Source of the DNA: Thermodesulfobacteriota bacterium
GTDB lineage: Bacteria; JAUYMQ01
Direction of reading: 5' to 3'
Assembly (NCBI GenBank): GCA_041486365.1
Contig: JBGPLH010000016.1
Span: 1-19,020 of the forward strand
Length of the DNA stretch: 19,020 nt
Of the stretch, positions 1 to 17,515 are shown one piece after another. Numbering within the stretch: the stretch's first letter is position 1; each line of letters starts with the position of its first letter. The position numbers and the translations under genes are program-made. Below the pieces are notes generated by a model, which did not search any database, was not told the origin of the DNA, and saw nothing but the letters and a program-made list of their open reading frames with translations.

Positions 1-1
1 C

Positions 2-2051: not shown

Positions 2052-2110
2052 CGATTTGAAGGAGGCTCTACACCGCCCCCTTGCGCCGGGGATGCTAGCA
2101 AGAACCCCCT

Positions 2111-2500: not shown

Positions 2501-2558
2501 TGCACGACTCCTTCGATGAAAGGGCCGCCGCCCGACGCGGGCCGGCGGCGCGCGCGGC

Positions 2559-3329
2559 CTACCTCGGCACCGCCGCCTTCACGATCTCGGAGAACGATTT
2601 GGCCTCGAGGCTGGCGCCGCCCACGAGCGCCCCGTCGATGTCCGGCTGCTCCATGAGCGATCGGGCATTGTCGGCGTTCACCGATCCGCCGTACTGGATC
2701 CGCGCGCGGCCGGCGGCCTCCGGTCCGTAGACGTCCCGCATGTACTCCCGGATGAAGGCGTGGACCTCCTGGGCCTGGGCCGGCGTGGCCGTCTTCCCCG
2801 TTCCGATGGCCCAGACGGGCTCGTAGGCGATCACGATCTTCTCGACGCCGCGCGCGGTGAAGCCCGAGAGCCCGATTTCGACCTGCCTTCCCACCACGCG
2901 GAACGTCTGCTCCTCGTCGCGCTCGTCGAGCGTCTCGCCCACGCAGAGGATGGGCGTCATCTCGTTGTGCAGCACGAGCTTCACCTTCTTGGCGATGTCG
3001 TCGTCCCGCTCCCCGAAGATGTGCCGGCGCTCCGAGTGCCCCACGATCACGTAGCTGCAGCCCGCGTCGGCGAGCATCTTCGGCGCGACCTCACCGGTGT
3101 AGGCGCCGCGCTCTTCGAAATGGCAGTTCTGGGCGCCCAGACGCATCACGCTTCCCTGCAGCTCGCGCCCGACGACGGCGAGCGAGGGGAAGGGAGGCGC
3201 CACGCCGATGTCGACCTCCCGGACGCCGTCGAGCAGCCGGCGGCACTCCTTCACGAGGAGGACCGATTCGGCCTGCAGGTTGTGCATCTTCCAGTTTCCG
3301 ACGACGACGGGCCTGCGTTGGACGTCCAT
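2559..3329 (-). CDS. tpiA: triosephosphate isomerase
   Basis: Contains VVVGNWKMHN, GHSERR, AYEPVWAIGTG and QYGGSV motifs. The start was moved to the internal ATG at 3327-3329 (MDVQRRPVVVGNWKM). The ORF-track start at 3353 would overlap the pgk stop and has no RBS. A GGGAAGGG RBS lies in the 16-nt pgk-tpiA spacer. Confidence 0.85.
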   Translation of the reverse strand: MDVQRRPVVVGNWKMHNLQAESVLLVKECRRLLDGVREVDIGVAPPFPSLAVVGRELQGSVMRLGAQNCHFEERGAYTGEVAPKMLADAGCSYVIVGHSERRHIFGERDDDIAKKVKLVLHNEMTPILCVGETLDERDEEQTFRVVGRQVEIGLSGFTARGVEKIVIAYEPVWAIGTGKTATPAQAQEVHAFIREYMRDVYGPEAAGRARIQYGGSVNADNARSLMEQPDIDGALVGGASLEAKSFSEIVKAAVPR

Positions 3330-3345
3330 GGTTTCCCTTCCCGGG

Positions 3346-4533
3346 TCAGCCAAGCGCGGAGAGGCCGGGCAGGTCGAGCCCCTCGAGGAACTCGAGCGAA
3401 GCGCCGCCTCCCGTGCTCACGTGCGATATTCGGCCCGCCGCCGGCATGGCGTGAAGCGCGGCCACCAGGTCGCCGCCGCCCACGACGCTCGTCGCGCCGC
3501 CGCCCGTTGCCTCCGAAACGGCGCGCGCGATCGCCAGCGTCCCCTCGTTCCAGGGGGCGATCTCGAACACCCCCATCGGGCCGTTCCAGAAGATCGTGCG
3601 GGCCCGCGTGACCTCCGCGGCATAGGCCGCGGCCGTCCGGGGGCCGATGTCCACGCCCGTCCAGCCCGGCTCGATGTCCTCCCCCGGGCTCACCTTCGAC
3701 GGGGCCCCCGCCTTCACTTCCCGCGCGATCACGTGGTCCGCCGGAAGCGCGAGCTTCTTCGGGGCGCGCTCGTCCGCGAGCAGCGCGGCCGCGTCGGCGA
3801 TCCGATCGGGCTCGACGAGCGAGTTGCCGACCTGCCGGTTCTTCGCCCGCAGGAAGGTGTACGCCATGGCGCCGCCCACGAGGATCCGGTCGGCGCGCGA
3901 GAGGAAGTTCGAGAGCACGGCGAGTTTGTCGGAGACCTTGGCCCCCCCCACGACGGCGACGAAGGGGGAGGGCGGGTTCACGAGCAGCCCGGAGAGAAAC
4001 TTCACCTCCCGCAGCAGGAGAAGCCCGGCCGCTTTCTCGCGGACGAACGCCGCGATCCCCGCGGTGCTCGCGTGGGCGCGGTGCGCCGCGCCGAAGGCAT
4101 CGTTCACCCATACGTCGGCCAGGCCCGCGAGTGCGCTCGCGAATCCCGGATCGTTCTTCTCCTCCTCCGCGTGGAAGCGGAGGTTCTCCAACAGAAGGAT
4201 CTCGCCCTGCCCCAAGGCCGCCACCTGCTTCTCCACCTCGAGGCCCACGCAATCGGGGGCCAGGGGCACGGTGCGCCCGAGCAGCTCCCCGAGCCGCTTC
4301 GCCACGGGGGCCAGCGAGTACTTCGGGTTCGGCTTCCCCTTGGGGCGCCCGAGATGTGACGCGAGGATCACCCGCGCTCCCTTGTCGAGCGCGAGCTTCA
4401 CCGTGGGCAGCGACGCGCGGATGCGGGTGTCGTCGCTCACTTTTCCCCCGGCGTCCAGGGGCACGTTCAGGTCGGCCCGGATGAAGACCCGCTTCCCGGA
4501 CAGATCGAGGTCCTCGACGGAGGGGAGGTTCAT
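3346..4533 (-). CDS. pgk: phosphoglycerate kinase
   Basis: 395 aa starting MNLPSVEDLDLSGKRVFIRADLNVPLD with a typical PGK length and hinge. The gene is contiguous with gap (6-nt spacer) and tpiA. Confidence 0.9.
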   Translation of the reverse strand: MNLPSVEDLDLSGKRVFIRADLNVPLDAGGKVSDDTRIRASLPTVKLALDKGARVILASHLGRPKGKPNPKYSLAPVAKRLGELLGRTVPLAPDCVGLEVEKQVAALGQGEILLLENLRFHAEEEKNDPGFASALAGLADVWVNDAFGAAHRAHASTAGIAAFVREKAAGLLLLREVKFLSGLLVNPPSPFVAVVGGAKVSDKLAVLSNFLSRADRILVGGAMAYTFLRAKNRQVGNSLVEPDRIADAAALLADERAPKKLALPADHVIAREVKAGAPSKVSPGEDIEPGWTGVDIGPRTAAAYAAEVTRARTIFWNGPMGVFEIAPWNEGTLAIARAVSEATGGGATSVVGGGDLVAALHAMPAAGRISHVSTGGGASLEFLEGLDLPGLSALG

Positions 4534-4539
4534 GCCGGC

Positions 4540-5544
4540 CTAGAGCGTCTTCGCGATGAAGCGGATCAGGTCGACGCAGCGGTGCGCGTAGCCGGTTTCG
4601 TTGTCGTACCAGGAAAGCACCTTCGCGAACCGGTCTTCAAGCACCCGGGTGCTCAGCGCGTCGACGATGCTCGATCTCGGATCGCCGTTATAGTCGATCG
4701 ACACGAGCGGCTCGTCGGAGACGCCGAGGATGCCCTTGAGCGGCCCTTCGGCGGCCGCGCGGAAGGCCGCGTTGATCTCCTGGGCAGTGGCCTTCTTCGC
4801 GAGGTTCACGGTGAGGTCCACCACGGAGACGTTGAAGTTCGGCGTGCGGATCGCCATGCCGTCGAGCTTGCCCTTGAGCTCCGGGAGCACGAGGCCCACG
4901 GCCTTGGCGGCCCCCGTCGTCGTCGGGATCAACGAAACGGCCGCGGCCCGTGCGCGGCGCAGGTCCTTGTGCGGGAGATCGAGGATCTTCTGATCGTTCG
5001 TGTACGAATGGATCGTCGTCATGAGGCCGCGCTCGATTCCCCAGTTCTCGTGGAGCACCTTGGCGACCGGCGCCAGGCAGTTGGTCGTGCAGGAGGCGTT
5101 CGAGATCACATGGTGCCTGGCGGGATCGTAGGCCTTCTCGTTGATGCCCAGCGCGAGCGTGATGTCTTCGTTCTTCGCGGGGGCCGAGATGATCACCTTT
5201 TTTGCGCCGCGCGCGATGTGCCGGGAGGCCGACTCCTTGTCGACGAACTTGCCGGTGCTCTCGAGCACCACCTCCACGCCCAGCTCCTTCCAGGGAAGCT
5301 CGCCCGGGTCCTTCATGGCCAGCACCTTGATCTCGCGGCCGTCCACGACGATCGCGTTGTCCTTGACCTGGACGTCGCCCTGGTAGCGGCCGTGCACGCT
5401 GTCGTACTTGAGCAGGTGCGCGAGCACGTCCGGCTGCGTGAGATCGTTCACGGCGAGGACCTCGATATCGGCGGCGCCCCGAATGGCGCGCATGAAGCAG
5501 CGGCCGATTCGGCCGAAGCCATTGATCCCAACCCGGATGGACAT
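4540..5544 (-). CDS. gap: glyceraldehyde-3-phosphate dehydrogenase (type I)
   Basis: 334 aa beginning [15 protein letters not shown] (Rossmann motif) with the [12 protein letters not shown] catalytic-Cys motif. An AAGGAGG RBS sits 7 nt upstream of the ATG at 5542-5544. Confidence 0.9.
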
Positions 5545-5760
5545 CGGTGAGCCTCCTTGAACACGGTGCGGCGCCAGGGGATCTTGCGCCTTGAGATCCT
5601 CTTCTGGGCGGGGGCCGGCGCTGAAAAAGAGATGCGCTCCCTCGGGACGCGCGGGACGGCCCTTCCGGGAACGGGGACCGCAGTGCGGAAACCATGGTCC
5701 TTCGAGGGCGGGACCCGGCCAGGAGACCGGGCGCTTGCGGGGCCGGCCGTAAAAAGAGCC

Positions 5761-5788
5761 AATATATTTGGAATCGCCTCGAAGTCAA
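5761..5788 (-). promoter_or_regulatory. candidate sigma70-type promoter of gap-pgk-tpiA-secG operon (-35 TTGACT, 16-nt spacer, -10 TATATT)
   Basis: Reverse complement of 5761-5788 reads TTGACTtcgaggcgattccaaaTATATT. This is the only AT-rich patch in an otherwise GC-rich 454-bp intergenic region. It would give a leader of about 210 nt before the gap ATG. Confidence 0.5.
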
Positions 5789-5998
5789 CCGCTCCTTCCC
5801 CGCGGGGGTGCGGGGCCGGAGATAGTTCCCGACCGCCGGAGGAGTCCGCAAATCGTGCGCGCGCGCCCGGCCCGAGGGCATCGGGGTGGCGCGTTCACGC
5901 AAGTCCGCTTGCCCGCCGTGCCGCCCTGCGGCTAGCATGAGTGGACGGGCGCGGCTCGACCGCGGCGGGCGTCCTGCACGCGCGCCCGCGGAGGACGG

Positions 5999-6517
5999 AT
6001 GGGGCTATGCGGTGTGGGGCTCGACGTGGTGGACGTGGAGCGCATGGCCCGTGCCCTCGATCGGGGCGGCGAACGATTCCTCCGGCGGGTGTTCACCGAT
6101 CGGGAGATCGCCTCGGCCCGGGGGAAGCCCGACGCCGCGCGCCGTTTCGCGCTTTGCTTCGCGGCGAAGGAAGCCTTCTTCAAGGCGATCGGCAGCGGCT
6201 GGCCCCGCGGCGGGAAGCTCACGGACGTGGAGCTGCTGTACAAGGGAGGCTCGCCCGCCCTTGAGGTGTCGGGCGTCGCGCGCGACATCCTGGACGGGCG
6301 GCGCGTCGAGCGCGTGGAGATCAGCGCCTCCTGGGAGCGGCGGCTCGCCCTGTGCCTCGTCCTTCTCCTGCTTTTATCCGTCCCGGACTCTTCCATCCGG
6401 TGGTCCCCCTCGACGTGGGGGCCGACAAGATCTGACCTGAGGTCCCCCTCGAAGAGGGGGCCGACAAGATCTGACCTGAGGTCCCCCTCGAGGAGGGGGC
6501 CACATGAACCAAAATGA
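5999..6517 (+). CDS. acpS: holo-[acyl-carrier-protein] synthase (4'-phosphopantetheinyl transferase), with ~45-aa C-terminal extension encoded by tandem hairpin repeats
   Basis: The N-terminal ~128 aa align by pattern to AcpS: GVGLDVVDVERM, FTDREI, RFALCFAAKEAFFKAIGSG and ISASWERRLALCLVLL correspond to ISLSH...AV. A GGAGGA RBS lies at 5990-5995. The reading frame then continues through the 39-bp repeats to a stop at 6515-6517. Confidence 0.7.
   Translation: MGLCGVGLDVVDVERMARALDRGGERFLRRVFTDREIASARGKPDAARRFALCFAAKEAFFKAIGSGWPRGGKLTDVELLYKGGSPALEVSGVARDILDGRRVERVEISASWERRLALCLVLLLLLSVPDSSIRWSPSTWGPTRSDLRSPSKRGPTRSDLRSPSRRGPHEPK
6402..6503. repeat. 2.6 tandem copies of a 39-bp GC-hairpin repeat (GGTCCCCCTCGAnnnGAGGGGGCCGACAAGATCTGACCTGA)
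   Basis: Unit 1 is 6402-6440, unit 2 is 6441-6479 and unit 3 (partial) is 6480-6503. The units differ only in the 3-5 nt hairpin loop (CGACGTG, GAA, GAG). Each contains a perfect CCCCCTC...GAGGGGG stem. Confidence 0.85.
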
Positions 6518-6598
6518 TTTCCGCGGCGCGGGCCAGGCACCCGCGTCCGGACCCCCAGGCGGCCCACCCCGACGCACCCGGCACGCCAGGAGCCTTCG

Positions 6599-8083
6599 AT
6601 GAAGGATAGCCACTACGACCGCCTGACGATGCTCGATACCTCCTTCCTCGCGCTGGAGGACCCCACCACGCCCATGCACGTCGCCTCCACGAGCATTCAC
6701 GACGCGGGGCCGCTCAGGCGCCCGGACGGCGGGATCGACGGCGACAGGATCCGGGAGTACATCCGGTCGCGGCTTCACCTCATCCCACGCTACCGGCAGC
6801 GCATCGCCAGGATCCCCATCGAGAATCATCCGGTGTGGGTGGACGACGATCACTTCAACATTCACTACCACGTGCGGCACACCGCGCTGCCGCGGCCGGG
6901 CGACGAGCGCCAGCTCAAGCGCCTGTCGGCGCGGATCATGTCACAGCCGCTCGACCGCTCGAGGCCTCTCTGGGAGATCTGGATCGTCGAAGGTCTGGAC
7001 GGGGGCGATCGCTTCGCGCTCATCAACAAGACCCACCACTGCATGATCGACGGGGTCTCGGGGGCGGAGTTGCTGAAGGTCCTGTTGCGCGACAATCCGG
7101 ACGAGGACTTCCAGGAGACCGCCGAATGGGTCCCGCGTCCCATCCCGAGCGCCTCCGAGATGCTCGGCCGGGAAGTCCTGCGCCGGATCCAGACGCCCTT
7201 CTCCCTCCTCGGCGAACTCCCGGAGGCTCTCCGCCGGCCCGGGAAGACCCTCTCGACACTGCGGGAGGACCTGTCCGCCATCGTGGAAACGGTGACCGCC
7301 CAGGTCCGCACCGTGTCGACCACGCCCCTCAATCGTTCCATCGGGCCCCATCGGCGCTTCGACTGGCTGCCGATGCAAATCGCGGATCTGAAGGACGTGG
7401 CGCACCGCCTGGGCGGCAGCCTGAACGACGTCGTGCTCGCCACGGTGGCGGGCGCTCTCCGGATATTCCTGGAGCACCGGCGCGTGTACGTGGACGAACT
7501 CGACATCCGCGCCTTCGTCCCCGTGAGCGTCCGCTCGCGGGAGGAGCGGGGGAAGATAGGCAACCGGGTGTCGGCCTGGGTGATGCCGCTTCCCACGGAG
7601 GTGCGCGATCCCAGGGAGCGGCTGGAGCGGGTGATCGAGACCACGACGCGCCTCAAGCATTCCAGGCAGGCGCTCGGCGCCGAGCTGCTCGAGGAGCTGA
7701 GCGAATGGGGCAACACGACGCTCTTCTCGCTCGGGCTCCAGCTCGCGACCCGCGCGGTGACCTTTCACCTCGTGGTCACCAACGTCCCCGGCCCCTCGAT
7801 GCCGCTCTACCTCCTCGGCGCGCGGATGCGCGAGTGCTATCCGATGGTCCCGCTCTTCCAGAACCACGGGATGGGGATAGCGCTCTTCTCCTACGCGGGT
7901 GGCATCTACTGGGGTTTCAACGCCGACTGGGACCTGGTGCCCGACCTGCACGACTTCGTGCAGGCGGTGAGCACCTCCTTCCGGGAGCTGCAGGAGGTGG
8001 CCCTCAAGGAGCCCGTCCCGGCCCGTTCCGCTGGAAAAAAGAGGGTCGGGAAAAAGGGGCGAGAGGCCGCGGTTCACCGTTGA
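6599..8083 (+). CDS. wax ester synthase/diacylglycerol acyltransferase (WS/DGAT) family acyl-CoA acyltransferase
   Basis: 494 aa. Carries the catalytic HHxxxDG motif (NKTHHCMIDGVSG). The N-terminus LTMLDTSFLALEDPTTPMHVAS is typical of WS/DGAT. An AGGAG RBS lies 6 nt upstream of the ATG at 6599. Confidence 0.8.
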   Translation: MKDSHYDRLTMLDTSFLALEDPTTPMHVASTSIHDAGPLRRPDGGIDGDRIREYIRSRLHLIPRYRQRIARIPIENHPVWVDDDHFNIHYHVRHTALPRPGDERQLKRLSARIMSQPLDRSRPLWEIWIVEGLDGGDRFALINKTHHCMIDGVSGAELLKVLLRDNPDEDFQETAEWVPRPIPSASEMLGREVLRRIQTPFSLLGELPEALRRPGKTLSTLREDLSAIVETVTAQVRTVSTTPLNRSIGPHRRFDWLPMQIADLKDVAHRLGGSLNDVVLATVAGALRIFLEHRRVYVDELDIRAFVPVSVRSREERGKIGNRVSAWVMPLPTEVRDPRERLERVIETTTRLKHSRQALGAELLEELSEWGNTTLFSLGLQLATRAVTFHLVVTNVPGPSMPLYLLGARMRECYPMVPLFQNHGMGIALFSYAGGIYWGFNADWDLVPDLHDFVQAVSTSFRELQEVALKEPVPARSAGKKRVGKKGREAAVHR

Positions 8084-8157
8084 CATTGCCTGCGGGCTGT
8101 GGGAGTCTCCCCACAAAACTTTTGGAACTCCGGCTCGATAAAGGGAGAATCGGAACC

Positions 8158-9873
8158 ATGAAGAGGGATGATGCGAAGAGGAGAAAGTCCAGGCACGACA
8201 TAGACTTGTCCAGACGCGCCTTCCTGGGCAGCGCGGCCATGCTCACTGCGGCGGGCAGCCTGCTGGGGACTCCCGGCGTGGCCGGGGCGGTACCGAAGCC
8301 CAACCTGGCCGGCCCGCTAGCCGGAAACCGCCGCCGCAACCAGGCCTTCCGGGCCCGCGTGGAGTCGGCGAACTTCAACCACCACCTGCCCATTCCGGCT
8401 CACCCCACCAACGGGGACGAGGCCCTCTATCCAGACCGGATAGGGAGCTACTCCAAGGGCCTCCCGCACAACAGCTTCGGCGAAGTGGACATGGTCGCCT
8501 ACAACGCGTTCATGCGGGCCTGCGCGACCGGGCTGCCCGCTGATTTCGAGGCGATCCCCTTGGGCTGCCCGAATCCCGCGCAGCAGATGAAGCTGGTCAA
8601 CCCGCAGGCGGGCCTCGCCTTCGACCTCGAGGGAACGGACTCCCATCAGTTCACCATGCGGGCGGCGCCGGCCTTCGCGAGCGCGGAGGAGGCGGGGGAG
8701 ATCGTCGAGAACTACTGGATGGCCCTCCTGCACGACGTCGCGTTCACGGACTACGGCACGAGCCCGATGGTCCAGGACGCCGCCGACGATCTCTCGGCGA
8801 TGTCCGACTTCCGCGGACCGAAGGTGGGCGGGAACGTGACTCCGGAAACGCTCTTCCGCGAAGACGTCCCCGGCGGACTCATGGGTCCCTACATCTCCCA
8901 GTTCCTCTGGCGTCCCGCGCCCTTCGGCGCGGAGTACGTCGAGAAGCGGATGCGCACCGTGGCGGCGGGCGTCGAATACATGACGGCCGCGGCCGACTGG
9001 CTGGACGTGCAGAATGGTTGCAAGCCGGCCGGGCCGCAATTCGATCCCACGCGGCGCTACATCCGCAACGGACGCGATCTGTCGCAGTGGGTGCACATCG
9101 ACGTGCTGTTCCAGGCCTACTTCGACGCGGCCCTGATCATCATGACGCCGCCCGATGCGACGGACACCGTCACGGGCGGCGGCATCGGCTGCCCTCCCAA
9201 CCCGGGTAACCCCTACATCGGCTCGCAGACCCAGGAAGGCTTCGGCACCTTCGGCGGGCCCTACTTCGCGACGATCCTGGCGGAAGTCTCGACGCGGGCG
9301 CTCAAGGCGGTGTGGTACCAGAAGTGGTTCCTGCACAGGCGGCTTCGGCCGGAGGCGTTCGCGGGGCATATCCATCACAAGATCGCGAGCGGCCGGAACT
9401 ACTCCATCCACGACGATGTCCTGAACTCGGACGCCCTCGCGGAGGTATTCTCCGAGCACGGGACCTACTTCCTGCCCATGGCCTTCCCGGAAGGATCACC
9501 CTTGCATCCCGCATACGGCGCGGGTCACGCTACCGTCGCGGGCGCCTGCGTGACGATCCTCAAGGCGCTCTTCAACGAGACATTCCCGGTCGCGAACCCC
9601 GTCGTCGCCTCCGCCGACGGCCTCTCGCTCGTCCCGTACGTCGGCCCCGACGCGGGCAGCCTCACGGTGGGCGGCGAGCTGAACAAGCTCGCGGTCAACG
9701 TGGCCTTCGGCCGCAACATCGCGGGCGTTCACTGGCGCACGGACGGGGGCGAGTCGATGCGCCTGGGCGAGGCCCTCGCCATCAGCATCCTGCGCGATCA
9801 GCGGGCGTGCTACAGCGAGGTCTTCGGGGGATTCACCTTCACGAAGTTCGACGGGACGACGATCACGGTGTGA
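8158..9873 (+). CDS. Tat-exported vanadium-dependent haloperoxidase family protein (PAP2 superfamily)
   Basis: A GGGAG RBS lies at 8142-8146 and the ATG at 8158. A twin-arginine signal is present (LSRRAFLGSAAMLTAAGSLLGTPGVAGA). The three PAP2/V-HPO motifs are KWFLHRRLRP, HPAYGAGHAT and GRNIAGVHWRTD. The last resembles the GVHWRFD vanadate-His region of fungal/bacterial V-haloperoxidases. The 6835-9873 ORF-track entry is an off-frame artefact for its first 1.3 kb. Confidence 0.65.
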   Translation: MKRDDAKRRKSRHDIDLSRRAFLGSAAMLTAAGSLLGTPGVAGAVPKPNLAGPLAGNRRRNQAFRARVESANFNHHLPIPAHPTNGDEALYPDRIGSYSKGLPHNSFGEVDMVAYNAFMRACATGLPADFEAIPLGCPNPAQQMKLVNPQAGLAFDLEGTDSHQFTMRAAPAFASAEEAGEIVENYWMALLHDVAFTDYGTSPMVQDAADDLSAMSDFRGPKVGGNVTPETLFREDVPGGLMGPYISQFLWRPAPFGAEYVEKRMRTVAAGVEYMTAAADWLDVQNGCKPAGPQFDPTRRYIRNGRDLSQWVHIDVLFQAYFDAALIIMTPPDATDTVTGGGIGCPPNPGNPYIGSQTQEGFGTFGGPYFATILAEVSTRALKAVWYQKWFLHRRLRPEAFAGHIHHKIASGRNYSIHDDVLNSDALAEVFSEHGTYFLPMAFPEGSPLHPAYGAGHATVAGACVTILKALFNETFPVANPVVASADGLSLVPYVGPDAGSLTVGGELNKLAVNVAFGRNIAGVHWRTDGGESMRLGEALAISILRDQRACYSEVFGGFTFTKFDGTTITV

Positions 9874-9898
9874 TCGCGGACCTGGGCCGTTCCGGAAG

Positions 9899-9927
9899 GG
9901 CGCCGCTCTCGCGGCGCCTTTCTCGTT
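9899..9927 (+). terminator. rho-independent terminator downstream of haloperoxidase gene
   Basis: GGCGCCGC-TCTC-GCGGCGCC hairpin (9899-9918) followed by TTTCTCGTT. Confidence 0.6.
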
Positions 9928-10037
9928 GGGGGCGCGAGGTTGCCGCTGCGCCCGCGTGCCGGGGACGCCCGTCCTGCGGGGAGGGCGAGGCTCCTGCCGA
10001 GCCGGCGTTGTGACAGAAGCGCCCGCTCGAGCGAAAC

Positions 10038-10871
10038 TCACCTTGGATTCAGCCAGTCAAAGTGGCATCCCAAAATCCATCGTCGCATATACTCTCGATT
10101 GTTCCGCTCGCGCTCTTCCCGAAACCTTTTCGCCGGATTGCGTCCCTCTCTCAATAGCCGTTCGTCTTCTTGGATAGCCCCTTCGATGGTGCGATCCACA
10201 TCCCCTTGACGAAAAGGTTCCCTCTCATGGAGCCGGATGACACGCCCAGCCAAACTATCGGGTCCAGGCTGTGGTCCCTTCTGAGGTTCTTGGGCGTTGC
10301 GCTTGATACCCGTTCTTCCTGCTCCATTCTTGCCGTGGGTGGACGAGGCAGAACCCATCCTTCCTTGCGGCCGCTGCGGACTGGTATAGCCAAGGACGAG
10401 GATGTTGCTTATTCGCAGCCCTTCGATCCCGCTGATCATGGGAAGCAAGCGTTTGGTAACATAGTCCCACCTGAGTTCTTTCCCATTTCCCGCAATGAAC
10501 GGATTCCCCATCTCTAGGTTGTCCGGGATGATCAAACACCCGAATGCGCGACCGTCACTTGGTATCGTTTCTGCATAGGCCATCATCTTCAGCAAGTCGA
10601 ATTCAAGCCGGTTTGCTTCCTTCTCGATCTCGACTGAGATGTGGTCCTGGCCCTGGATGATCCGGAGATCATCCTTGAATCGACGACCGGGCAGTATTCG
10701 CTCCTCAAGGCGAACATCGATTCCCTGTCCCTTCAAATAGAGGAACAAGAGCTCATCCAGACGTTTTGCGTCCTCTTCGACCGCTTTGCGGACCCCAGTC
10801 TTGAGACACTCGAAGATCGAAGAGGGTAACGTAGGGGTGCCGCGCCAGTAGTAGTGGTCAACCAGTGACAT
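10038..10871 (-). CDS. hypothetical protein on low-GC island; N-terminal ~165 aa coherent, C-terminal ~110 aa low-complexity/possibly degenerate; weak restriction-endonuclease-like (E-x-E acidic cluster) resemblance
   Basis: ATG at 10869-10871 with an AAAGGGGA RBS, 3 nt after the hxlR stop. Local GC is about 48-55% versus about 70% in the flanks. The N-terminal region (DHISVEIEKEANRLEFDLLKMM...GCLIIPDN) loosely resembles the E-F-E-x-G-N / hydrophobic core of BamHI/BglII-type REases, recalled from memory. The C-terminal half is Arg/Gly/Pro-rich and overlapped by alternative-frame ORFs, suggesting frameshift or decay. Confidence 0.4.
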   Translation of the reverse strand: MSLVDHYYWRGTPTLPSSIFECLKTGVRKAVEEDAKRLDELLFLYLKGQGIDVRLEERILPGRRFKDDLRIIQGQDHISVEIEKEANRLEFDLLKMMAYAETIPSDGRAFGCLIIPDNLEMGNPFIAGNGKELRWDYVTKRLLPMISGIEGLRISNILVLGYTSPQRPQGRMGSASSTHGKNGAGRTGIKRNAQEPQKGPQPGPDSLAGRVIRLHEREPFRQGDVDRTIEGAIQEDERLLREGRNPAKRFREERERNNREYMRRWILGCHFDWLNPR

Positions 10872-10874
10872 AAA

Positions 10875-11213
10875 CTATCCCCTTTTCCCTCCACGTCTCG
10901 CCCACCGTTTCGCCCAGGCGTCGAGATCGGCCAGTTCCCGGAGCAGGATCTTCCCCTCGGCGGTGAGGGCGTAGCCGCCTCCTTCCAGGGCCGTGACGAT
11001 CCCCGCTTCACGCAACTCCGCGAGGCGCTGGTTCAGCACGCTCGGCGACATCGCCTCGCAGGACTCCCGCAACTGGCGAAACGTGAGCGACCGCTCTCGC
11101 AGCTCCCAGAGGATCCGGAGCGCCCAGCGCCGGCCCAGGAGATCGAGCAGCGCCATGATGGGCCGCCCCGTCCGCGATCCCCGGACCTTCCGTCCCGGCT
11201 TTGGCGCCGCCAT
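10875..11213 (-). CDS. HxlR-family winged-helix transcriptional regulator
   Basis: 112 aa. ALLDLLGRRWALRILWELRERSLTFRQLRE...LNQRLAELREAGIV matches the HxlR/DUF24 pattern. A GGGAGG RBS lies 3-5 nt upstream of the ATG at 11211-11213. The gene is divergent from a CMD-family gene, which is the typical HxlR arrangement. Confidence 0.8.
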   Translation of the reverse strand: MAAPKPGRKVRGSRTGRPIMALLDLLGRRWALRILWELRERSLTFRQLRESCEAMSPSVLNQRLAELREAGIVTALEGGGYALTAEGKILLRELADLDAWAKRWARRGGKRG

Positions 11214-11228
11214 GCCCCTCCCTTGCGC

Positions 11229-11280
11229 TACGATTTCAGTAGTGCTAGCATCTGCTATTGAAACCGTAGCACATGCTATC
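11229..11280. promoter_or_regulatory. AT-rich divergent hxlR/CMD control region with nested palindromes (candidate HxlR operator)
   Basis: Inverted repeat TTTCAGTAG(11235-11243)/CTATTGAAA(11255-11263). Perfect palindrome TGCTAGCA(11243-11250). TAGCAcaTGCTA palindrome at 11267-11278. Possible -35 TTGCGC / -10 TAGCAT for the + strand. Confidence 0.4.
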
Positions 11281-11335
11281 CTGCCACGCCGCGAAGCGCA
11301 ACCGCGCGCCGCTGCCCTCGTCCAGGGAGTCCGTC

Positions 11336-11947
11336 ATGACCACATCCCGTATCAAGCCCCTCGAGCCCCCCTACGCCCCGGAGATCGCCGCAGCCCTCGC
11401 GAAGATGATGCCCCCGGGCTCGCCCGTGGAGCCGCTCCGTCTCTTCCGGACGCTGGCGCATAACTTCATGATAGGGGATCGGTTTCGCGTGCTCGGCAGC
11501 GGGATCCTGAACAAGGGATCGATCGACGCGCTCGACCGCGAGATCGTGATCCTGCGCACGACCGCCCGCTGCGGCTCCGAGTACGAGTGGGGCGTGCACG
11601 TAGTGGCCTACGGCCGGCCGCTGGGGCTCTCGGAGGATCAGATCGTCGCCACCGCGAACGGCGCTTCGGACGACCCGGCCTTCACGGCGCGGCAGGGGCT
11701 ACTCGTGCAATTGGCCGACGCGTTGCACGAGGAAGCGGCGGTGTCGGACGATCTGTGGCGCGATCTAGAAAAGGCCTGGACTGCGGCGCAGCTCATCGAG
11801 CTGCTCGTGACGGCGGGCTTCTACCACATCGTTTCGTTTGTCACGAACGCCGCGCGGGTCGAGCGTGAGGATTGGGCGGAGCGGTTTCCGGCCCGCCGGA
11901 CAATCACACCTCCGCCGCGTACGGCGGCGCCGGGTCATATTCCATGA
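11336..11947 (+). CDS. carboxymuconolactone decarboxylase (CMD/AhpD-like) family protein
   Basis: An AGGGAG RBS lies 7 nt upstream of the ATG at 11336 (MTTSRIKPLEPP...). The motifs RTLAHNFMIGDRF, the Cys in ILRTTARCGSEYEWGVH and the downstream helices resemble AhpD-like CMD proteins. The 3' end overlaps the convergent DJ-1 gene by 44 bp. Confidence 0.7.
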   Translation: MTTSRIKPLEPPYAPEIAAALAKMMPPGSPVEPLRLFRTLAHNFMIGDRFRVLGSGILNKGSIDALDREIVILRTTARCGSEYEWGVHVVAYGRPLGLSEDQIVATANGASDDPAFTARQGLLVQLADALHEEAAVSDDLWRDLEKAWTAAQLIELLVTAGFYHIVSFVTNAARVEREDWAERFPARRTITPPPRTAAPGHIP

Positions 11948-12500
11948 AACGCTGGATCGCGCGGGCCGTGTCCACGCCCCAGAGCTGGCCGGACACCCAC
12001 AGGGCCATGTCGATGCCGGCGGACACGCCCGCCGAGGTCACGACGTTTCCGTCGCGCACGTAACGCACCTTCTCCAGCACCGTGGCGTCGGGCGCGATCT
12101 GGCGCAGCGTATCGATGAAGGTCCAGTGGGTCGTGATCCGCTTCCCGCGGGCGAAGCCGCTTCCGTACAGGAGCTGCGAGCCCGTGCACACGCTGGTCAC
12201 CCAGGCGCAGCGCGCACCCGCCTTGCGCAGCCAGTCGAGAAGGACCGGGTTTTCCATCTCGGCCAGGGTGCCCTGCCCGCCGGGCACGAGGACGACGTCG
12301 AGCTCGGGCGCATCGTCGAAGGTGTGGTCCGGGATCACGCGCAGCCCCTTCGCGCAGCGGACGGGCTCGCGGGTCTGGGCGATCGTTACCACCCGAACGT
12401 CCTCCCGCAGGTGCGTCGCCATCGTGAAGACTTCCCAGGGGCCCGCGAAGTCGAGCTCCTCGGCGTCGGGGAACAGCATGATTCCGATGGTCGTGCTCAC
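11904..12500 (-). CDS. DJ-1/PfpI family protein (isocyanide-hydratase/glyoxalase-III-like)
   Basis: GTG start at 12498-12500 with a GGAGG RBS 6 nt upstream (MSTTIGIMLFPDAEELDFAGPWEVF). Nucleophile elbow SVCTGSQLL. C-terminal EYDPAPPYAAEV. It is buried in the spurious 594-aa ORF 11904-13688. The start overlaps the GlxA stop (GTGA). Confidence 0.75.
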   Translation of the reverse strand: MSTTIGIMLFPDAEELDFAGPWEVFTMATHLREDVRVVTIAQTREPVRCAKGLRVIPDHTFDDAPELDVVLVPGGQGTLAEMENPVLLDWLRKAGARCAWVTSVCTGSQLLYGSGFARGKRITTHWTFIDTLRQIAPDATVLEKVRYVRDGNVVTSAGVSAGIDMALWVSGQLWGVDTARAIQRFMEYDPAPPYAAEV

Positions 12501-13519
12501 GGGGTACCTCCTTGTGCGTGAGAGGCGCGCTGGAAGCGGCTGCGATAGGCGGCCGGACCGACGCGAAGGGTGCGAAGAAACGCGCGGCGCATGGACTCCG
12601 CGCTGCCGAAGCCGCAGGCGGCGGCAAGGGCGTCCATGCCCTGCGACGATTGCTCGAGCCTGCGCCGCGCCGCCTCCACGCGGGCGCGCTCCACGAAGCG
12701 GGCGGGGGTGACGCCCGTCTCGGCGGCGAAGACGCGGGCGAAGTGACGAGGGCTCATGGCTGCGCGCCGGGCGAGCGCCTGGATGGAACAATCGGCGCCG
12801 GGGTGATCGAGAATCCACGCCTGCAGATCCCGGAGCGGCTCCCGTTCGGGGATCTGGGCCGAGAGCTGGGCGCTGAACTGGGACTGCCCGCCCGGGCGCT
12901 TCAGGAAGACGACGAGCCACTTCGCCACCAGGAGCGCGAGATCCCGCCCGTGATCCTCTTCCACGAGGGCGAGCGCGAGGTCCATCCCGGCGGTGACTCC
13001 CGCGGAGGTGTAGAGACGCCCGTCGCGGACGAAGATCGGGTCCGGCTCCACTTTCACGCGGGGGTAGCGTCGCGCCAGCGCGTCGCAGGATGCCCAGTGG
13101 GTGGTGGCGCGGCGGCCGTCCAGGAGCCCCGCCTCGGCGAGCAAGAAGGCGCCGGTGCACACCGATCCGGCGCGACGGGCGCGCGGGGCGGCGCGACGGA
13201 TCCAGTCGACGAGCGCGCGGTCGGCCGTGGCGGCGCGAGTCCCCTGGCCCCCGGCGACGATCAGCGTGTCGATGGGGAAGCGAACTCTTCCGAGGGTGGT
13301 CGCCGGGCCGATCTCGATCCCGTTGCTCATCCGGACGGAACCGCCGCGGGTCGCCGCGATCCCGATGCGGTAGGCCGCGGGCGATTCGCCGTTCGTGCGC
13401 TCGAGGATCCGGGTCGCCATCGAGAAGACCTCGAGGGGCCCGATCACGTCGAGGATCTGGGCGTCGGGAAAGGCGGCCATGACCACCGATCGGGTTGTCC
13501 CTTTTCTCTGATGCTCCAT
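12497..13519 (-). CDS. GlxA-family transcriptional regulator (DJ-1/PfpI-like N-terminal domain + AraC-type HTH)
   Basis: 340 aa. The DJ-1-like domain includes Cys in GSVCTGAFLLAEAGLL. The C-terminal AraC HTH reads IQALARRAAMSPRHFARVFAAETGVTPARFVERARVEAARRRL. A GAGGGAG RBS lies 7 nt upstream of the ATG at 13517-13519. Confidence 0.8.
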   Translation of the reverse strand: MEHQRKGTTRSVVMAAFPDAQILDVIGPLEVFSMATRILERTNGESPAAYRIGIAATRGGSVRMSNGIEIGPATTLGRVRFPIDTLIVAGGQGTRAATADRALVDWIRRAAPRARRAGSVCTGAFLLAEAGLLDGRRATTHWASCDALARRYPRVKVEPDPIFVRDGRLYTSAGVTAGMDLALALVEEDHGRDLALLVAKWLVVFLKRPGGQSQFSAQLSAQIPEREPLRDLQAWILDHPGADCSIQALARRAAMSPRHFARVFAAETGVTPARFVERARVEAARRRLEQSSQGMDALAAACGFGSAESMRRAFLRTLRVGPAAYRSRFQRASHAQGGTP

Positions 13520-13719
13520 GGCGGCTCTCCCTCGGGGCGCGCAACGCGTGGAACCTGAGCCTCAGCCTACCCGGACGGCCGGATGGCCGCAATGACAAAG
13601 ACCCCTCGGATCCTGCCATTCCCGGAACAACTTGACTGGGGGTCGGAGGGCACGTAGGTCCTTGTCGGAAGGGGGATTCAGGAGCCACCTTCCCGCATCA
13701 GTCCCAGGAGGAGGTCCCG

Positions 13720-13947
13720 ATGATCGTCGTCCTGTTCCGGTCGCGGCTAGGCCCGGAGGCGGGGGAGGAGTACGGGGACGGGGAGCGCCTCTCGGTGATC
13801 GAGTTTGATTCAGAGGAACACCTGACGGCATGGCGCGAGCATCCCGACCATCGAAAGGCGCAGGTCCGGGGCCGGGAGAAGTTCTACACCGAGTATCGCC
13901 TGACGGTCGCGGAGACCATCCGGGATTACGGCTTCCGGCGAGACTAG
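13720..13947 (+). CDS. small ABM (antibiotic-biosynthesis-monooxygenase)-like / Dabb-fold protein, short (75 aa)
   Basis: Strong AGGAGGAGG RBS with the ATG at 13720. MIVVLFRSRLGPEAGEEY...VIEFDSEEHLTAWREHPDHRKA resembles the ABM-domain ends but is about 20-25 aa shorter than the canonical fold. Confidence 0.55.
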   Translation: MIVVLFRSRLGPEAGEEYGDGERLSVIEFDSEEHLTAWREHPDHRKAQVRGREKFYTEYRLTVAETIRDYGFRRD

Positions 13948-13953
13948 CGCGCG

Positions 13954-14823
13954 CTATTGCGCGGTGTTGAAGATCAGCGGCAGCCCGTCCTTCCCGGAGC
14001 CGATGATCACCACCTTCGCGTTCTGCGACGTGGCGATCTTCTCGGTGGCCTGGATCCCCTTCCAGCGCAGGAGCTGATCACTGATCCCCTCCACCACGAT
14101 CCGCTGGAAATCGGCGATCCCCCTGGCCTCGATCCGCTTCCGGTCGGCCTCCTGCTTCTCCTTGGTGAGGACGAACTGCATCCGCTGGCTCTCCTGCTCG
14201 GCCTGGAGCTTCGATTCGATCGACTGGGTGAGGCCGGGCGGAAGGATCACGCGCCGGAGCGGCACCGACTCCACGATCACACCGCGGGGCCCGGTCTGCT
14301 TCTCGAGGTCACGGAGGATGAGCTGGGAGAGGTGCTCCCGCTCAGAGGTATAGAGCGCCTTCGCGTCGTACTCTGCCGTCACGCCCCGGGTGACCGACCG
14401 GAACTGCGGCTCGAGGATCACGCCCGTGTAGAACCTTCCCACGGTCTTGTACACCTGGGGGGCTTTCTGCGCGTCGAGGTGGAACAGCACGCTCGTCTCC
14501 AGCCCCACGGTGAGCCCCTCGCGGGAAGGCACCTGCATCACTTCCTTGATCTCCTGCGTCTTGACAGACATCTTCACGACCCGCGCCAGCGGGTTCACCA
14601 CGTTGATTCCCGCGTGCAGGACCCGGGACGAGACGTTGCCGAAGAAGTCGATCACCCCGACGTTTCCCGCCGGCACCACCGTCAGCCACTGGGCGAGCGC
14701 GAGGAGCCCGGCGCCGGCCGCCACGATCAGGAGCACGGCGCGGCCCCGCTCCTGTGCTTGCCGCCCGCCGGCGTACAACCCGATGGAGCCGACCACGATC
14801 AGGACGCAGATGATGAACAGCAT
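13954..14823 (-). CDS. SPFH/band-7 (prohibitin/HflC-like) membrane protein
   Basis: 289 aa. N-terminal TM helix MLFIICVLIVVGSIGLYAGG. The SPFH core reads NVGVIDFFGNVSSRVL...VKMSVKTQEIKE...YKTVGRF...ILEPQFRSVTRGV. A coiled-coil Q/E/R-rich segment follows. A GGAGGGGAG RBS precedes the ATG at 14821-14823. It is buried in the spurious 972-aa ORF. Confidence 0.8.
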   Translation of the reverse strand: MLFIICVLIVVGSIGLYAGGRQAQERGRAVLLIVAAGAGLLALAQWLTVVPAGNVGVIDFFGNVSSRVLHAGINVVNPLARVVKMSVKTQEIKEVMQVPSREGLTVGLETSVLFHLDAQKAPQVYKTVGRFYTGVILEPQFRSVTRGVTAEYDAKALYTSEREHLSQLILRDLEKQTGPRGVIVESVPLRRVILPPGLTQSIESKLQAEQESQRMQFVLTKEKQEADRKRIEARGIADFQRIVVEGISDQLLRWKGIQATEKIATSQNAKVVIIGSGKDGLPLIFNTAQ

Positions 14824-14993
14824 GGTTCTCCCCTCCACCCGGCCTGCGCGGGGCCGCATTCCGCGCGGCGCGCGCGACCGGGTCGCGTGATGGTCCACCC
14901 CCGCCCGCGACGCCGCGGGCGAGGGGGAACCGTTCGGGTGCGCATCTTCGGCGAAGCGGGAGCGCGGCTCAAGAAGTATCGAGGCGGCCGCGC

Positions 14994-15025
14994 CCGAAAA
15001 GACGCCACCCGGCCGGAGGGCCGGG
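14994..15025 (-). terminator. candidate rho-independent terminator after acylase gene
   Basis: CCCGGCC-GGAG-GGCCGGG hairpin (15008-15025). On the minus strand it is followed by GTGGCGTCTTTTC. Confidence 0.45.
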
Positions 15026-15044
15026 GAGCGGATCCGGGCGGGTG

Positions 15045-17444
15045 TCAGCGCGCCGGAACGGGTTTCAGGGTCAGCGTCGAGACGCCCGGCGCGTCGATGG
15101 ACATCGGCACGTGGTCGCCCCGGAGCCACACCTGCGCGAGATCGCCGTGGTGCGGCGAGGTGAGGTTCCCGGACTGCCCGCTGTTCACGACGAAGCGGGA
15201 GCGCTCGGGGTCGGAGAGATCGACGATCTGCCGGAGGCCGGGCCCCGCGACGTGCTTGAACGGATAGGCGTAGAAGAACTGCCCGTTGTTCACCGTGAAG
15301 GAGGTCCCCGGTGTCGCGAAGGGCCCGAGGTTCAGCGCCGGCCCGAGCGTCGGATGGGCGCCGAGCGGGTGCGGCATCGTGAGCGTGTGCAGCCGCCCCC
15401 AGGTCCAGCCGGTCGAATCGGCGCCGAGTCTTTCGCGCAGGAGGCGGATAGCCCGCGTGAGGGCGCGCAGCAGGAGATCGTCCATCCGCCGCTCGTGCAA
15501 CCAGCTCGAGTCCGGGTTGCGGAACACGCGCTGGGCCGCCATGAGCGACTCGTTCCAGTTCTCGAAGGCGAGCAGCCAGAGGTCCTCCCCGAGCGTCGGC
15601 TCGAAAACCTCCTTTAGGAGCTGGTGGAACAGCGCGTGGTGCAGGGCCGCCGCGCGCGAGTCGGCACTGCACTCGAAATCCCACTGGCGGAGCGTCGCGA
15701 GCGCCTCCCGCACGGCCGGCCCCTCGGGTCCCCGCAGCTCCTGCCTGAGCAGGCGCTCGGCCCAGGGGTTCACGACGTCGCGGACGAACTCCTCCGCCTC
15801 CAGCGAACGCACGTCGAGCTGGATGGCGCGGACCGTGTCGGCGTCGTGGCGGGAGGACTCCCGGATCCGCTCGCGGATCCGGCGGATCCGGTAGGGCGGC
15901 TCCCAGTAGCTCGATATGTAGAACGGGTAGTGCTCGGTCACCGTCTTGTTGTTGGCCGTCGCGATGAACCCTTCCTCGGGGTTGTAGAGCTTGGGCTGCG
16001 CGTCGAAGGGGACGAATCCCGTCCACTCGAAATCCTCGGGACCGGGCGCGTGCCAGCCGGGCACCGGCGTGGTCCCGCGGCCGTTCCGGCGGATCGGGAT
16101 CTTCCCGGCCAGCACGTAACCGATGTTCCCGTCGACGTCGGCGTAGATCACGTTCTGCGCGGGCGAGCCGAACTTCGAGGCCGCCCGCGCGAAGGCGTCG
16201 AAGTCCCCCGCGCGATTCACGTCCAGCAGCGCCTCCAGCTCGTTCGTCGGCTCGTGTCCCGTCCATTTGAAAGCCAGCACGTGGCCGTCCCCGCCGCCCA
16301 CGGCGTCCGTGAGGATGGGCCCGTGGCGCGTGATGCGCACGTCGCAGGCCACCGAGGGCTTGCCCTTGACGCCGATGTTCTCGGGGATCAGCGTCACGCT
16401 CTCCCAGCGATCTCCCACGAGCACCTTGTTCGGGTCGTCCGGCGAGACGCGCTCGACGTAGAGGTCCGCGTCGTGGGCCATCACGTTCGTCATTCCCCAC
16501 GCGATGCGCCGGTTGCGGCCGATGGTCACGCCGGGCGCCCCCGGGATGGTGACCCCCATCACGGAGAGATCGGGCGCGTCGATCGCCGCCGCGTACCAGA
16601 TGCCGGGAGAGGTGAGGAAGAGGTGCGGGTCGCTGGAGAGGATGGGTTTTCCGCTCTCGGTGAGCGCGCCACCGATGACCCAGTTGTTGCTCCCGGCATG
16701 CGGGCCACCCCAGGAGTTGAACAGGCGCAGCGCGGCGTCGGTGGCGATGAGCGCCTCCGCCGCTCGAGGCCCGTCGTAGCGCATGATGCGCGGATCGGAC
16801 GCCGGCCACTCGGGCGGGAGCAGCTCGCGGGCGAGCTGGGGCCGGTCGGCGAGGAGGTGCGCGCAGTGCCACTGCGCGAGGATCGAGCGCCAGGAGTAAC
16901 AGAGCTGGTAGGCCATCCCCTTCACGATCGAGAGCGTGTCCACGGGGTACCAGGGCTCGGGCTTGTAGCGCAGCAGGCCGAACTCCACCGGGAGCGGCCC
17001 CTTCGCGATGTAAGCGTTCACGCCCTCGGCGTAGTGATTGAGCGTGTCGATGCCCTTGCCCGAAAGCGCCTGCCGCGACCCTTCCGCCGCGCGCCTGAGC
17101 CCGAGGATGCGCATGAACCGGTCGAGGTCCGGCACGCGCTTCCCCTTGAAGACGACGGAGAGATCTTCCCAGTGAAGCGGCTCGTCCCCGAGGATCTCGG
17201 CCAGCCGCCCGGCGATCGCCCGCCGCGTGAAGTCCATCTGGAAGAGACGCTCACGCGCGTGGAGGAACCCGAGGGCCCGCCACGCGTCCGGCTCGCTGCG
17301 CGCCCGGATCCGCGGGATCGCCCACTCGTCGAAGCGAACCTCGACGTCGGCGTCGAGTCCGGCGAGGGTCGCGGCGCCCGAGTACGTGGGGCGGGACCTG
17401 CGGGAGAGGAGCCTCAGGACAAGACGGACGAGGGAGGTCTTCAT
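15045..17444 (-). CDS. penicillin amidase / acyl-homoserine-lactone acylase family Ntn-hydrolase (MEROPS S45)
   Basis: 799 aa. The N-terminus RFDEWAIPRIRARSEPDAWRALGFLHARERLFQMDFTRR is typical of S45 alpha subunits. The beta-subunit N-terminal nucleophile is SNNWVIGGALTESGKPILSSDPHL. An AAGAGG RBS precedes the ATG at 17442-17444. Confidence 0.85.
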   Translation of the reverse strand: MKTSLVRLVLRLLSRRSRPTYSGAATLAGLDADVEVRFDEWAIPRIRARSEPDAWRALGFLHARERLFQMDFTRRAIAGRLAEILGDEPLHWEDLSVVFKGKRVPDLDRFMRILGLRRAAEGSRQALSGKGIDTLNHYAEGVNAYIAKGPLPVEFGLLRYKPEPWYPVDTLSIVKGMAYQLCYSWRSILAQWHCAHLLADRPQLARELLPPEWPASDPRIMRYDGPRAAEALIATDAALRLFNSWGGPHAGSNNWVIGGALTESGKPILSSDPHLFLTSPGIWYAAAIDAPDLSVMGVTIPGAPGVTIGRNRRIAWGMTNVMAHDADLYVERVSPDDPNKVLVGDRWESVTLIPENIGVKGKPSVACDVRITRHGPILTDAVGGGDGHVLAFKWTGHEPTNELEALLDVNRAGDFDAFARAASKFGSPAQNVIYADVDGNIGYVLAGKIPIRRNGRGTTPVPGWHAPGPEDFEWTGFVPFDAQPKLYNPEEGFIATANNKTVTEHYPFYISSYWEPPYRIRRIRERIRESSRHDADTVRAIQLDVRSLEAEEFVRDVVNPWAERLLRQELRGPEGPAVREALATLRQWDFECSADSRAAALHHALFHQLLKEVFEPTLGEDLWLLAFENWNESLMAAQRVFRNPDSSWLHERRMDDLLLRALTRAIRLLRERLGADSTGWTWGRLHTLTMPHPLGAHPTLGPALNLGPFATPGTSFTVNNGQFFYAYPFKHVAGPGLRQIVDLSDPERSRFVVNSGQSGNLTSPHHGDLAQVWLRGDHVPMSIDAPGVSTLTLKPVPAR

Positions 17445-17515
17445 CTTTGCCTCTTGGCTGGGTCGCGCGCGAGCCGCGATCGCGGCCGCGGCGGGACGGC
17501 TACTGGATCAGCGTA

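Follow-up and report, generated by a model that had tools for sequence, protein, structure and literature searches.

What is a gene of conspicuously low guanine-plus-cytosine (GC) content doing directly behind a regulator gene in the housekeeping region of a high-GC bacterium? The question is posed by contig JBGPLH010000016.1 of a Thermodesulfobacteriota bacterium (assembly GCA_041486365.1), whose positions 1 to 19,020 were analyzed and are called the window throughout. On the minus strand of the window a nuclease-like open reading frame (ORF) follows an hxlR gene, and an initial annotation, made from the sequence without database searches, could place the encoded protein in no named family. 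We found that the protein joins an N-terminal domain with a predicted restriction-enzyme fold to a conserved C-terminal domain that recurs on other nucleases. We consider it reasonably probable that the gene encodes a methylase-independent, solitary defense-island or selfish BamHI-fold nuclease, was acquired from a donor of lower GC content and relies on the hxlR transcript for its expression.

The N-terminal domain has a predicted BamHI-like fold

In the AlphaFold model of the protein, residues 1-165 form a confident N-terminal domain (N-domain; predicted local distance difference test score, pLDDT, mostly 85-97), residues 167-200 are disordered (pLDDT 30-40), and a confident four-helix C-terminal domain (C-domain) follows. 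Foldseek with the predicted model ranked OkrAI and BamHI first, with a probability of 1.00, and both independent fold searches, of which this was one, agreed in having solely type IIP restriction enzymes as top matches; structural alignments to the group of BamHI, OkrAI, BglII and BstYI showed 9-14% identity. The alpha/beta PD-(D/E)xK core of the model is nearer to the BamHI/BglII enzymes than to other PD-(D/E)xK nucleases. We conclude that the N-domain, as modeled, very probably has the BamHI/BglII fold.

The model also locates a putative active site. An Asp (D68), just ahead of strand 69-73, is followed on the next strand by the pattern Glu-x-(Glu/Gln/Ser), here E81-x-E83 at the end of strand 76-82; helix 89-102 comes after these residues, and then strand 108-116. 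BamHI has the elements D94, E111-x-E113, helix 4 and strand 5 in this order, so that D68, E81 and E83 would be equivalent to its D94, E111 and E113. Conservation among 44 N-domain relatives was scored at D68 (43/44), E81 (44/44), E83 (43/44), R88 (43/44), D92 (42/44) and K95 (43/43), and for these six residues it extends to a sister family of ~340-residue proteins. The conserved set of the 44 sequences further comprises D39, F65, I82, E90, G111, P116, G128, Y137 and R141, and the window copy keeps 15 of the 15. The stretch singled out in the initial annotation (SVEIE...N, LLKMM, CLIIPD) does hold near-invariant family residues, and setting EIE...N/LLKMM/CLIIP beside EFETGN/LLLGL/IILMP of the BamHI/BglII-type enzymes is sound as a structural correspondence.

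At the level of sequence the picture is different: the resemblance to BamHI and BglII that had been suspected is upheld by the two fold searches, but sequence similarity is not statistically demonstrable. By sequence, the recommended comparison with PDB and Pfam turned up no restriction-enzyme family. A profile search of all PDB sequences returned no restriction enzyme, merely spurious 2S albumin matches; hhalign of the family profile and the 44-sequence N-domain profile against BamHI and BglII (query sequences 100% identical to 1bam and 1d2i) gave probabilities below 1%; and there was no significant profile match to Pfam RE_BamHI or RE_BglII. The case offers a lesson for annotation, in that structure prediction can resolve an unclassifiable ORF in a sharp GC dip though all sequence profiles fail.

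A rare and unnamed protein family

The N-domain belongs to an unnamed and rare family. Among 5.8 billion protein clusters there were only 13 close relatives of the window protein (38-54% identity, most of them full length), and the protein is the sole member of its own 90%-identity cluster. Full-length relatives retain the C-terminal 73 residues, with the consensus FRxNRxxNNxxYLRxWVxGCKFxWL. An exhaustive profile search (1.84 billion representatives) brought in the sister family, whose members are roughly 290-350 residues long and have the same N-domain; searching with the sister-family alignment gave 91 matches, all labeled 'hypothetical'.

Searches of the window protein against Pfam, NCBIfam and PADLOC gave no meaningful match (for Pfam, none even at E up to 10). 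In PADLOC-DB 2.0 it matched no component model of known or candidate anti-phage systems, restriction-enzyme models included, and for the sister family there were marginal matches in single members only. Scans with the family alignment of genome contigs (one genome per GTDB species), metagenome contigs and viral contigs found no relatives, and tblastn gave no match in plasmids or phages. One branch of the N-domain superfamily may already have a very recent Pfam entry, PF26497: precomputed annotations list it for P0222, P0224 and P0235, three N-domain-only proteins of about 170-195 residues, and it is not in the Pfam copy searched.

Some members of the family are damaged. The gene has two frameshifts at locus L001 and one at L002, and at L003 and L007 it is truncated at the N-terminus. 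As called, the L001 gene (P0011, 9884-11295) is a pseudogene-like mosaic: it begins with the end of a ResIII-type gene (motif IIETKG), and its C-domain is split over two other frames.

A conserved C-terminal domain found on many nucleases

The C-terminal ~110 residues had been described as low-complexity. This holds for a 39-residue disordered linker, behind which stands a folded and conserved 73-residue domain; modeled alone, the C-domain reached a pLDDT of 91 and a predicted template modeling (pTM) score of 0.80. The linker has an isoelectric point of 12 and, by alignment, is ~14-21 residues longer in the window protein than in other family members. ORFs in other frames, said to overlap this part of the gene, found no support.

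Selection on this half of the gene was estimated against L094, a 534-bp contig from another metagenome (sample ERZ27256953) with an 85% DNA-identical copy, the match spanning the linker, the C-domain and 59 nucleotides (nt) past the stop codon. The ratio of nonsynonymous to synonymous substitution rates (dN/dS) was 0.17 overall, 0.67 in the linker and 0.074 in the C-domain (dN 0.063, dS 0.85); this last ratio, at a dS of that size, indicates long-term purifying selection in the lineage. Judged from these two sequences, the C-terminal half is under strong purifying selection and the linker alone is free to drift. The initial annotation had named purifying selection on this half as one of two joint findings that would count against its own reading; the selection found removes decay from that reading, not horizontal transfer. 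In both copies the C-domain has exchanged two near-invariant tryptophans, one for H and the other for G, yet remains under selection.

The distribution of the C-domain among sequences marks it as a shuffled accessory module, carried by nucleases of conflict systems. In the exhaustive search, profile positions 180-257 picked out about 110 further clusters without any help from the N-domain. Among 111 C-domain copies, which have a mean net charge of +4.1, 38 are stand-alone (<=100 residues), 42 are C-terminal, 24 N-terminal and 7 internal. The domain is fused to HNH in four proteins (e.g. P0104), to the PLD-like MIT_C (P0146, 1.3e-44) and to NERD/UPF0102 (P0094); other fusion partners are AlbA_2, NOV_C, DUF6998, HTH_3, RHH, Phd/YefM and CBS. 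PADLOC models matched by its partners include mREase_II, PtuB, BrxL, TmtA and several candidate (PDC) systems. The C-domain itself matched no Pfam entry, a search for structural relatives returned none, and a scan of viral contigs gave no match.

The nearest comparison is with the EAD/Death-like domains of Aravind and colleagues, small helical effector-associated adaptor domains of conflict systems. Like these, the C-domain is all-helical, ~75 residues long, and found alone or at either end of HNH, PLD-like, NERD and restriction-endonuclease proteins; unlike these, it matches no Pfam EAD or other Pfam family, and no partner gene with a C-domain lies beside the gene in the window or at eight loci of relatives. 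Its basic character suits the C-domain to nucleic-acid binding no less than to an EAD-type adaptor role. A homotypic adaptor role with an adjoining partner was considered and is unsupported, there being no second copy of the domain in the window or among the neighbor genes of the eight loci, the few contexts available. A chimeric origin of the C-domain was also rejected: its near-identical match P0026 is a fragment of a close ortholog, not a different architecture.

We regard the C-domain as the more general lead. It is absent from Pfam, seems undescribed in the libraries searched, and occurs on at least four nuclease types and in about 110 sequence clusters. Knowing its ligand could explain the targeting or the harmlessness of methylase-less nucleases, and could yield new sequence- or modification-specific enzymes. 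A more ambitious reading, which we think unlikely, is that the C-domain is an undescribed, widely shuffled targeting or regulatory domain that defines a set of methylase-independent nucleases (BamHI-fold, HNH, PLD-like, NERD) serving stand-alone immunity or self-propagation, here wired to an HxlR stress signal. As a separate observation, a stand-alone 74-residue C-domain gene is present on 21 contigs, and at the four loci L087-L090 (about 5600-6225 in L087) it adjoins a 73-residue uncharacterized gene (99-residue at one locus) and a BrnT toxin pair; the arrangement may be a small two-gene module.

Foreign composition and extent of the transferred unit

The sharp fall in GC content around the ORF (Table 1) is real, though the range first given for it, 48-55%, was slightly low: 200-bp windows over 10000-10900 have GC fractions of 0.515-0.59, and both flanks 0.65-0.73. 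The ORF has 54.3% GC and a third-codon-position GC (GC3) of 0.61, compared with 68.8% GC for the remainder of the contig and a GC3 of 0.84-0.90 in the adjoining genes. Across the contig the minimum for 834-bp windows, 0.542, is at 10041 and thus on the ORF, whereas windows outside the island have a mean of 0.688 (standard deviation 0.019) and a minimum of 0.645.

The island, initially bounded at 10020-10877, is part of a unit that continues past the stop codon. The tail behind the gene is shared with L094 in 50 of 59 nt, its last 37 nt being almost identical, and similarity then breaks off abruptly at 9979; beyond the tail, L094 is high-GC, has no detectable similarity to the window and carries a different convergent ORF. 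Because the similarity to L094 ends at 9979, the transferred unit can be taken to run from about 9979 to about 10890 and to stand in two different 3′ contexts. No significant RNA structure was found in the tail (folding z-scores -0.75 and +0.72). Around the unit there are no convincing flanking direct or inverted repeats and no target-site duplication, merely short chance-level matches, and the 19-kb window has no integrase, transposase or methylase gene. An Rfam scan, in which no attC-specific model was used, gave no match; with neither flanking repeats nor an integrase, the unit does not have the marks of an integron or site-specific cassette.

The horizontal origin proposed in the initial annotation is borne out by the composition of the island against its flanks, by the 43-53% GC of the contigs carrying relatives, and by the absence of the gene from 80 related hxlR loci. 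An insert-free orthologous locus was sought through a neighboring 557-residue protein; the best genomes, Planctomycetota and Acidobacteriota metagenome-assembled genomes, were only 65-66% identical and showed no synteny with hxlR or with the carboxymuconolactone decarboxylase (CMD) gene beside it.

The host locus and expression of the ORF

Read directly on the minus strand, the 5′ junction is ...GGA GGG AAA AGG GGA TAG TTT ATG. The ORF does start 3 nt behind the hxlR TAG, as first reported, and the Shine-Dalgarno-like AAAGGGGA falls within the final hxlR codons, which encode a GKRG tail; in HxlR homologs the tails beyond the conserved W-A-x-R-W motif differ in length and sequence. A promoter and terminator scan of 9700-11500, which takes in the interval between the operator region and the ORF, found no terminator-like site and no promoter-like site of the sigma-70 consensus, which may not be the host's. 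Because the gap is 3 nt, an SD-like (Shine-Dalgarno-like) site is present and no promoter- or terminator-like site intervenes, co-transcription with translational coupling is the simplest reading, and on this evidence co-transcription of hxlR and the ORF is plausible.

We examined 80 hxlR homologs from metagenomes (60-75% identity), in answer to the question of whether related loci lack the insert. All 80 are without a nuclease gene, and 57 have a divergent CMD gene; what is conserved is therefore the pair hxlR-CMD, to which the nuclease gene is a lineage-specific addition. The window locus is like other divergent HxlR-CMD pairs in its hxlR, its CMD partner and an intergenic inverted repeat of the usual kind, and it alone differs from them in having a nuclease gene appended to hxlR. 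The arms of the repeat, TGCGCTACGATTTCAGTAG / CTATTGAAACCGTAGCACA, lie in an AT-richer intergenic stretch; from its sequence and position the repeat is likely an HxlR operator, a candidate that would mark the probable start of the transcript reading into the ORF.

Two ideas about the regulator fared less well. The suggestion of a defense module under HxlR control is better replaced by an incidental insertion, given a pair that recurs in 57 of 80 loci and never with the nuclease. The label 'redox-sensing' is not established, because residue 17, which we take to be the position of the sensing Cys in YodB-type regulators, is an Arg (as in 78/80 loci of the subfamily), though C52 is conserved (78/80).

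Elsewhere in the window the genes encode glycogen phosphorylase, triosephosphate isomerase, phosphoglycerate kinase, GAPDH, WS/DGAT and the 557-residue protein, and, beyond the nuclease gene, hxlR and CMD, a DJ-1/PfpI protein, an AraC/GlxA-like regulator (our own reading), a Band-7 protein and two penicillin amidases. The confident genes are all housekeeping or regulatory, and the nuclease gene is solitary among them; the adjacent methyltransferase noted as missing is missing from the whole 19-kb contig.

Table 1. Features of the nuclease-like gene and its surroundings (positions in the window)
Feature	Position	Strand	Remarks
59-nt GC-rich 3′ tail	9979..10037	-	travels with the gene; 3′ end of transferred unit
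Nuclease-like ORF	10038..10871	-	277 residues, ATG start, TGA stop 10038-10040, frame uninterrupted
C-terminal 73-residue four-helix domain, residues 205-277	10041..10259	-	unnamed module common to many nucleases
Linker, residues 166-204 (39 residues)	10260..10376	-	disordered, basic, low-complexity
N-terminal domain, residues 1-165	10377..10871	-	predicted BamHI/BglII-type PD-(D/E)xK fold
Predicted active-site stretch	10587..10670	-	D68 10668-10670, E81 10629-10631, E83 10623-10625, R88, D92, K95 10587-10589
5′ junction	10872..10890	-	hxlR stop TAG (10875-10877), 3-nt spacer, SD-like AAAGGGGA
hxlR, winged-helix regulator	10875..11213	-	Pfam HxlR 2.8e-11; directly upstream of ORF
19-nt inverted repeat	11224..11273	.	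arms 11224-11242/11255-11273, 84% complementary, hxlR-CMD intergenic
CMD (carboxymuconolactone decarboxylase/AhpD-like) gene	11273..11947	+	Pfam CMD 1.4e-5; divergent from hxlR

Genomic neighborhoods of relatives

Methylase, effector and toxin-antitoxin genes are found beside relatives of the window gene. At L002 an HsdM-like N6 methylase, HsdS and an FRG-domain gene precede the homolog, and there is no HsdR on the contig; at L003 an FRG gene precedes it; and on a JGI contig it stands behind an N6_Mtase/Eco57I gene and a gene of 288 residues. The FRG domain is a putative antiviral effector of the ART superfamily (PMC9503650). The homolog is followed by a NERD-UvrD helicase at L004, and L001 is similar, with, in addition, an insertion sequence element, a Gp49/HTH (HigB/Gp49) toxin-antitoxin pair, ResIII fragments, and NERD and AAA_30 genes. 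A NucS_C-like nuclease lies upstream at L005 and L006, and a DUF433/PIN toxin-antitoxin pair downstream at L007. In total, an N6 methylase gene of a type I-like or Eco57I-like kind lies upstream of two relatives, at a distance of one or two genes, and the other relatives have none.

In one clade (L002 3189-4840; L003 1371-2888) a gene of ~285 residues, which is the FRG-domain gene of both loci, is always placed 60-90 nt upstream on the same strand. This clade may represent a multi-gene system with the BamHI-fold protein as its nuclease. A sister-family gene, P0193 (L175, 10001-11002), is by comparison solitary: it lies on a 643-kb contig among enolase, AhpC and glycosidase genes, there is no methylase within 10 kb, and it is in a mild GC dip (0.57-0.60 vs 0.63-0.67). 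Its placement suggests solitary insertion as typical of the superfamily. A 333-residue gene near P0193 was considered as a paralog and is not one.

A predicted nuclease without an adjacent methylase

To our knowledge, the BamHI/BglII fold is seen almost exclusively in classical type IIP enzymes paired with a methylase; the window gene indicates that predicted members of this fold family also exist as solitary genes with an extra conserved domain. The fold itself is known and the family is unnamed and very rare; what is new is the architecture, a BamHI fold with the C-domain in a solitary gene. Compared with BamHI, OkrAI, BglII and BstYI, the window protein has no detectable sequence similarity or profile match, adds the linker and the 73-residue domain, and has the invariant K95 on the helix after the E-x-E strand; its gene has no adjacent type II methyltransferase, in the 19-kb window, of the kind that accompanies type II restriction-modification (R-M) systems. 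It is closer in organization to solitary or modular PD-(D/E)xK defense nucleases (type IV/modification-dependent enzymes, NucC, Can2, HamA, Shedu SduA), which need no protective methylase: like them it has a core with a separate accessory domain, and like theirs its relatives lie in defense-island neighborhoods.

We suggest that an intact foreign gene with its 59-nt tail, derived from a lower-GC organism, was inserted directly behind hxlR in a housekeeping region of this high-GC bacterium. The N-domain would be catalytic, with a BamHI-style acidic triad (D68, E81-x-E83) and the invariant Lys K95 on the following helix; going by the model, the protein would be a Mg2+-dependent DNA endonuclease working without a dedicated adjacent methyltransferase, and the C-domain may supply nucleic-acid binding or regulation. 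Its role would be that of a solitary defense-island or selfish nuclease, not of the R subunit of a classical type II R-M pair. Without a promoter of its own, the ORF would be transcribed as the tail of an autoregulated hxlR mRNA and translated from the SD-like site inside the last hxlR codons, so that control by HxlR would be a by-product of the landing site and not a dedicated circuit.

Several points weigh against this account. Sequence comparison connects the protein to no restriction-enzyme family (Pfam, NCBIfam, PADLOC, PDB profiles, hhalign); the fold is called from a predicted model built on just 14 sequences; and the proposed catalytic equivalence to BamHI follows element order rather than superposed coordinates. 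Two otherwise near-invariant Trp residues of the C-domain are missing from the window copy and from the 85%-identical one, and frameshifts or truncations affect several relatives, which is what dispensable or costly genes would show. Promoters were sought by a single consensus, which may not be the host's. Finally, an active solitary BamHI-like enzyme should be toxic, yet the host DNA has frequent BamHI, BglII and BstYI sites and shows no avoidance of them (GGATCC 20 copies and AGATCT 7 in the ~18 kb of the window outside 9979-10890, a sample too small to infer specificity from hexamer avoidance). Either a methylase is therefore encoded elsewhere, or the specificity is another or modification-dependent one, or the enzyme is held inactive.

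The first of these options leads to an ordinary type IIP restriction endonuclease with its cognate methyltransferase elsewhere, a split R-M system whose homodimer would cut a palindrome as BamHI does. That only type IIP enzymes head both fold searches, that the acidic triad is present, and that an N6-adenine methylase gene closely precedes the homolog in two relatives all speak for such an enzyme. We nevertheless consider it quite unlikely: no methylase is present in the window or within 10 kb of P0193, and those that do occur near relatives, with an FRG gene in between, belong to type I-like HsdM/HsdS sets or are Eco57I-like, and none is a paired type II M. PADLOC restriction-enzyme models do not match, and the C-domain, common to HNH, PLD-like and NERD proteins, is foreign to BamHI-type enzymes. 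A selfish gene of the homing-endonuclease kind, copied into its own intergenic cut, would explain how a compact promoter-less ORF-plus-tail came to lie between two host genes without an integrase or transposase. It would fit the precise insertion 3 nt past a stop codon, the co-traveling 59-nt tail with its abrupt end, the second copy in L094 with no shared sequence beyond that tail, the lack of mobility genes in the window, the many degraded relatives, which match the gain-decay-loss cycle of homing genes, and the fusion of the C-domain to HNH domains; in having a small basic domain joined to a nuclease by a flexible linker, the protein also resembles modular homing enzymes such as I-TevI. But we found no target-site duplication or flanking repeats, no empty/filled allele pair, and no relatives in the phage, plasmid and viral collections, where homing genes abound, while the relatives that were found are in typical defense-island neighborhoods, and we judge a homing origin distinctly improbable.

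The inactive remnant that the initial annotation had put first, a captured and decaying nuclease or toxin gene, seems to us very improbable. The unusually long low-complexity linker, the loss of the two Trp residues, the absence here of partner genes seen beside relatives and the clear damage to several of those relatives would suit a gene in decay. Against decay stand a frame uninterrupted over 277 codons, the 15 of 15 conserved N-domain residues that are intact, a C-domain that is conserved and has a dN/dS of 0.074 at a dS of 0.85 against L094, and models in which both domains fold confidently, the C-domain with a pLDDT of 91. We thus retain the methylase-independent solitary nuclease as the preferred account.

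Minor observations on the window

The palindromic hexamers most depleted in the window outside 9979-10890 are GAGCTC (4 vs 13 expected) and CAGCTG (1 vs 6.7), and GATC is over-represented, with 185 observed against 54 expected from base composition, in a sample too small for interpretation. A 1012-residue ORF at 6835-9873, which contains the gene of the 557-residue protein, was rejected as an artifact of high GC. The 557-residue protein itself (8200-9873, plus strand) has a Tat-like signal, RRAFLGSAAMLTAAG, no Pfam match and an uncharacterized function; its family is widespread, with over 270 relatives (51-66% identity) in Planctomycetota, Acidobacteriota, Thermoanaerobaculia, cyanobacteria and others.

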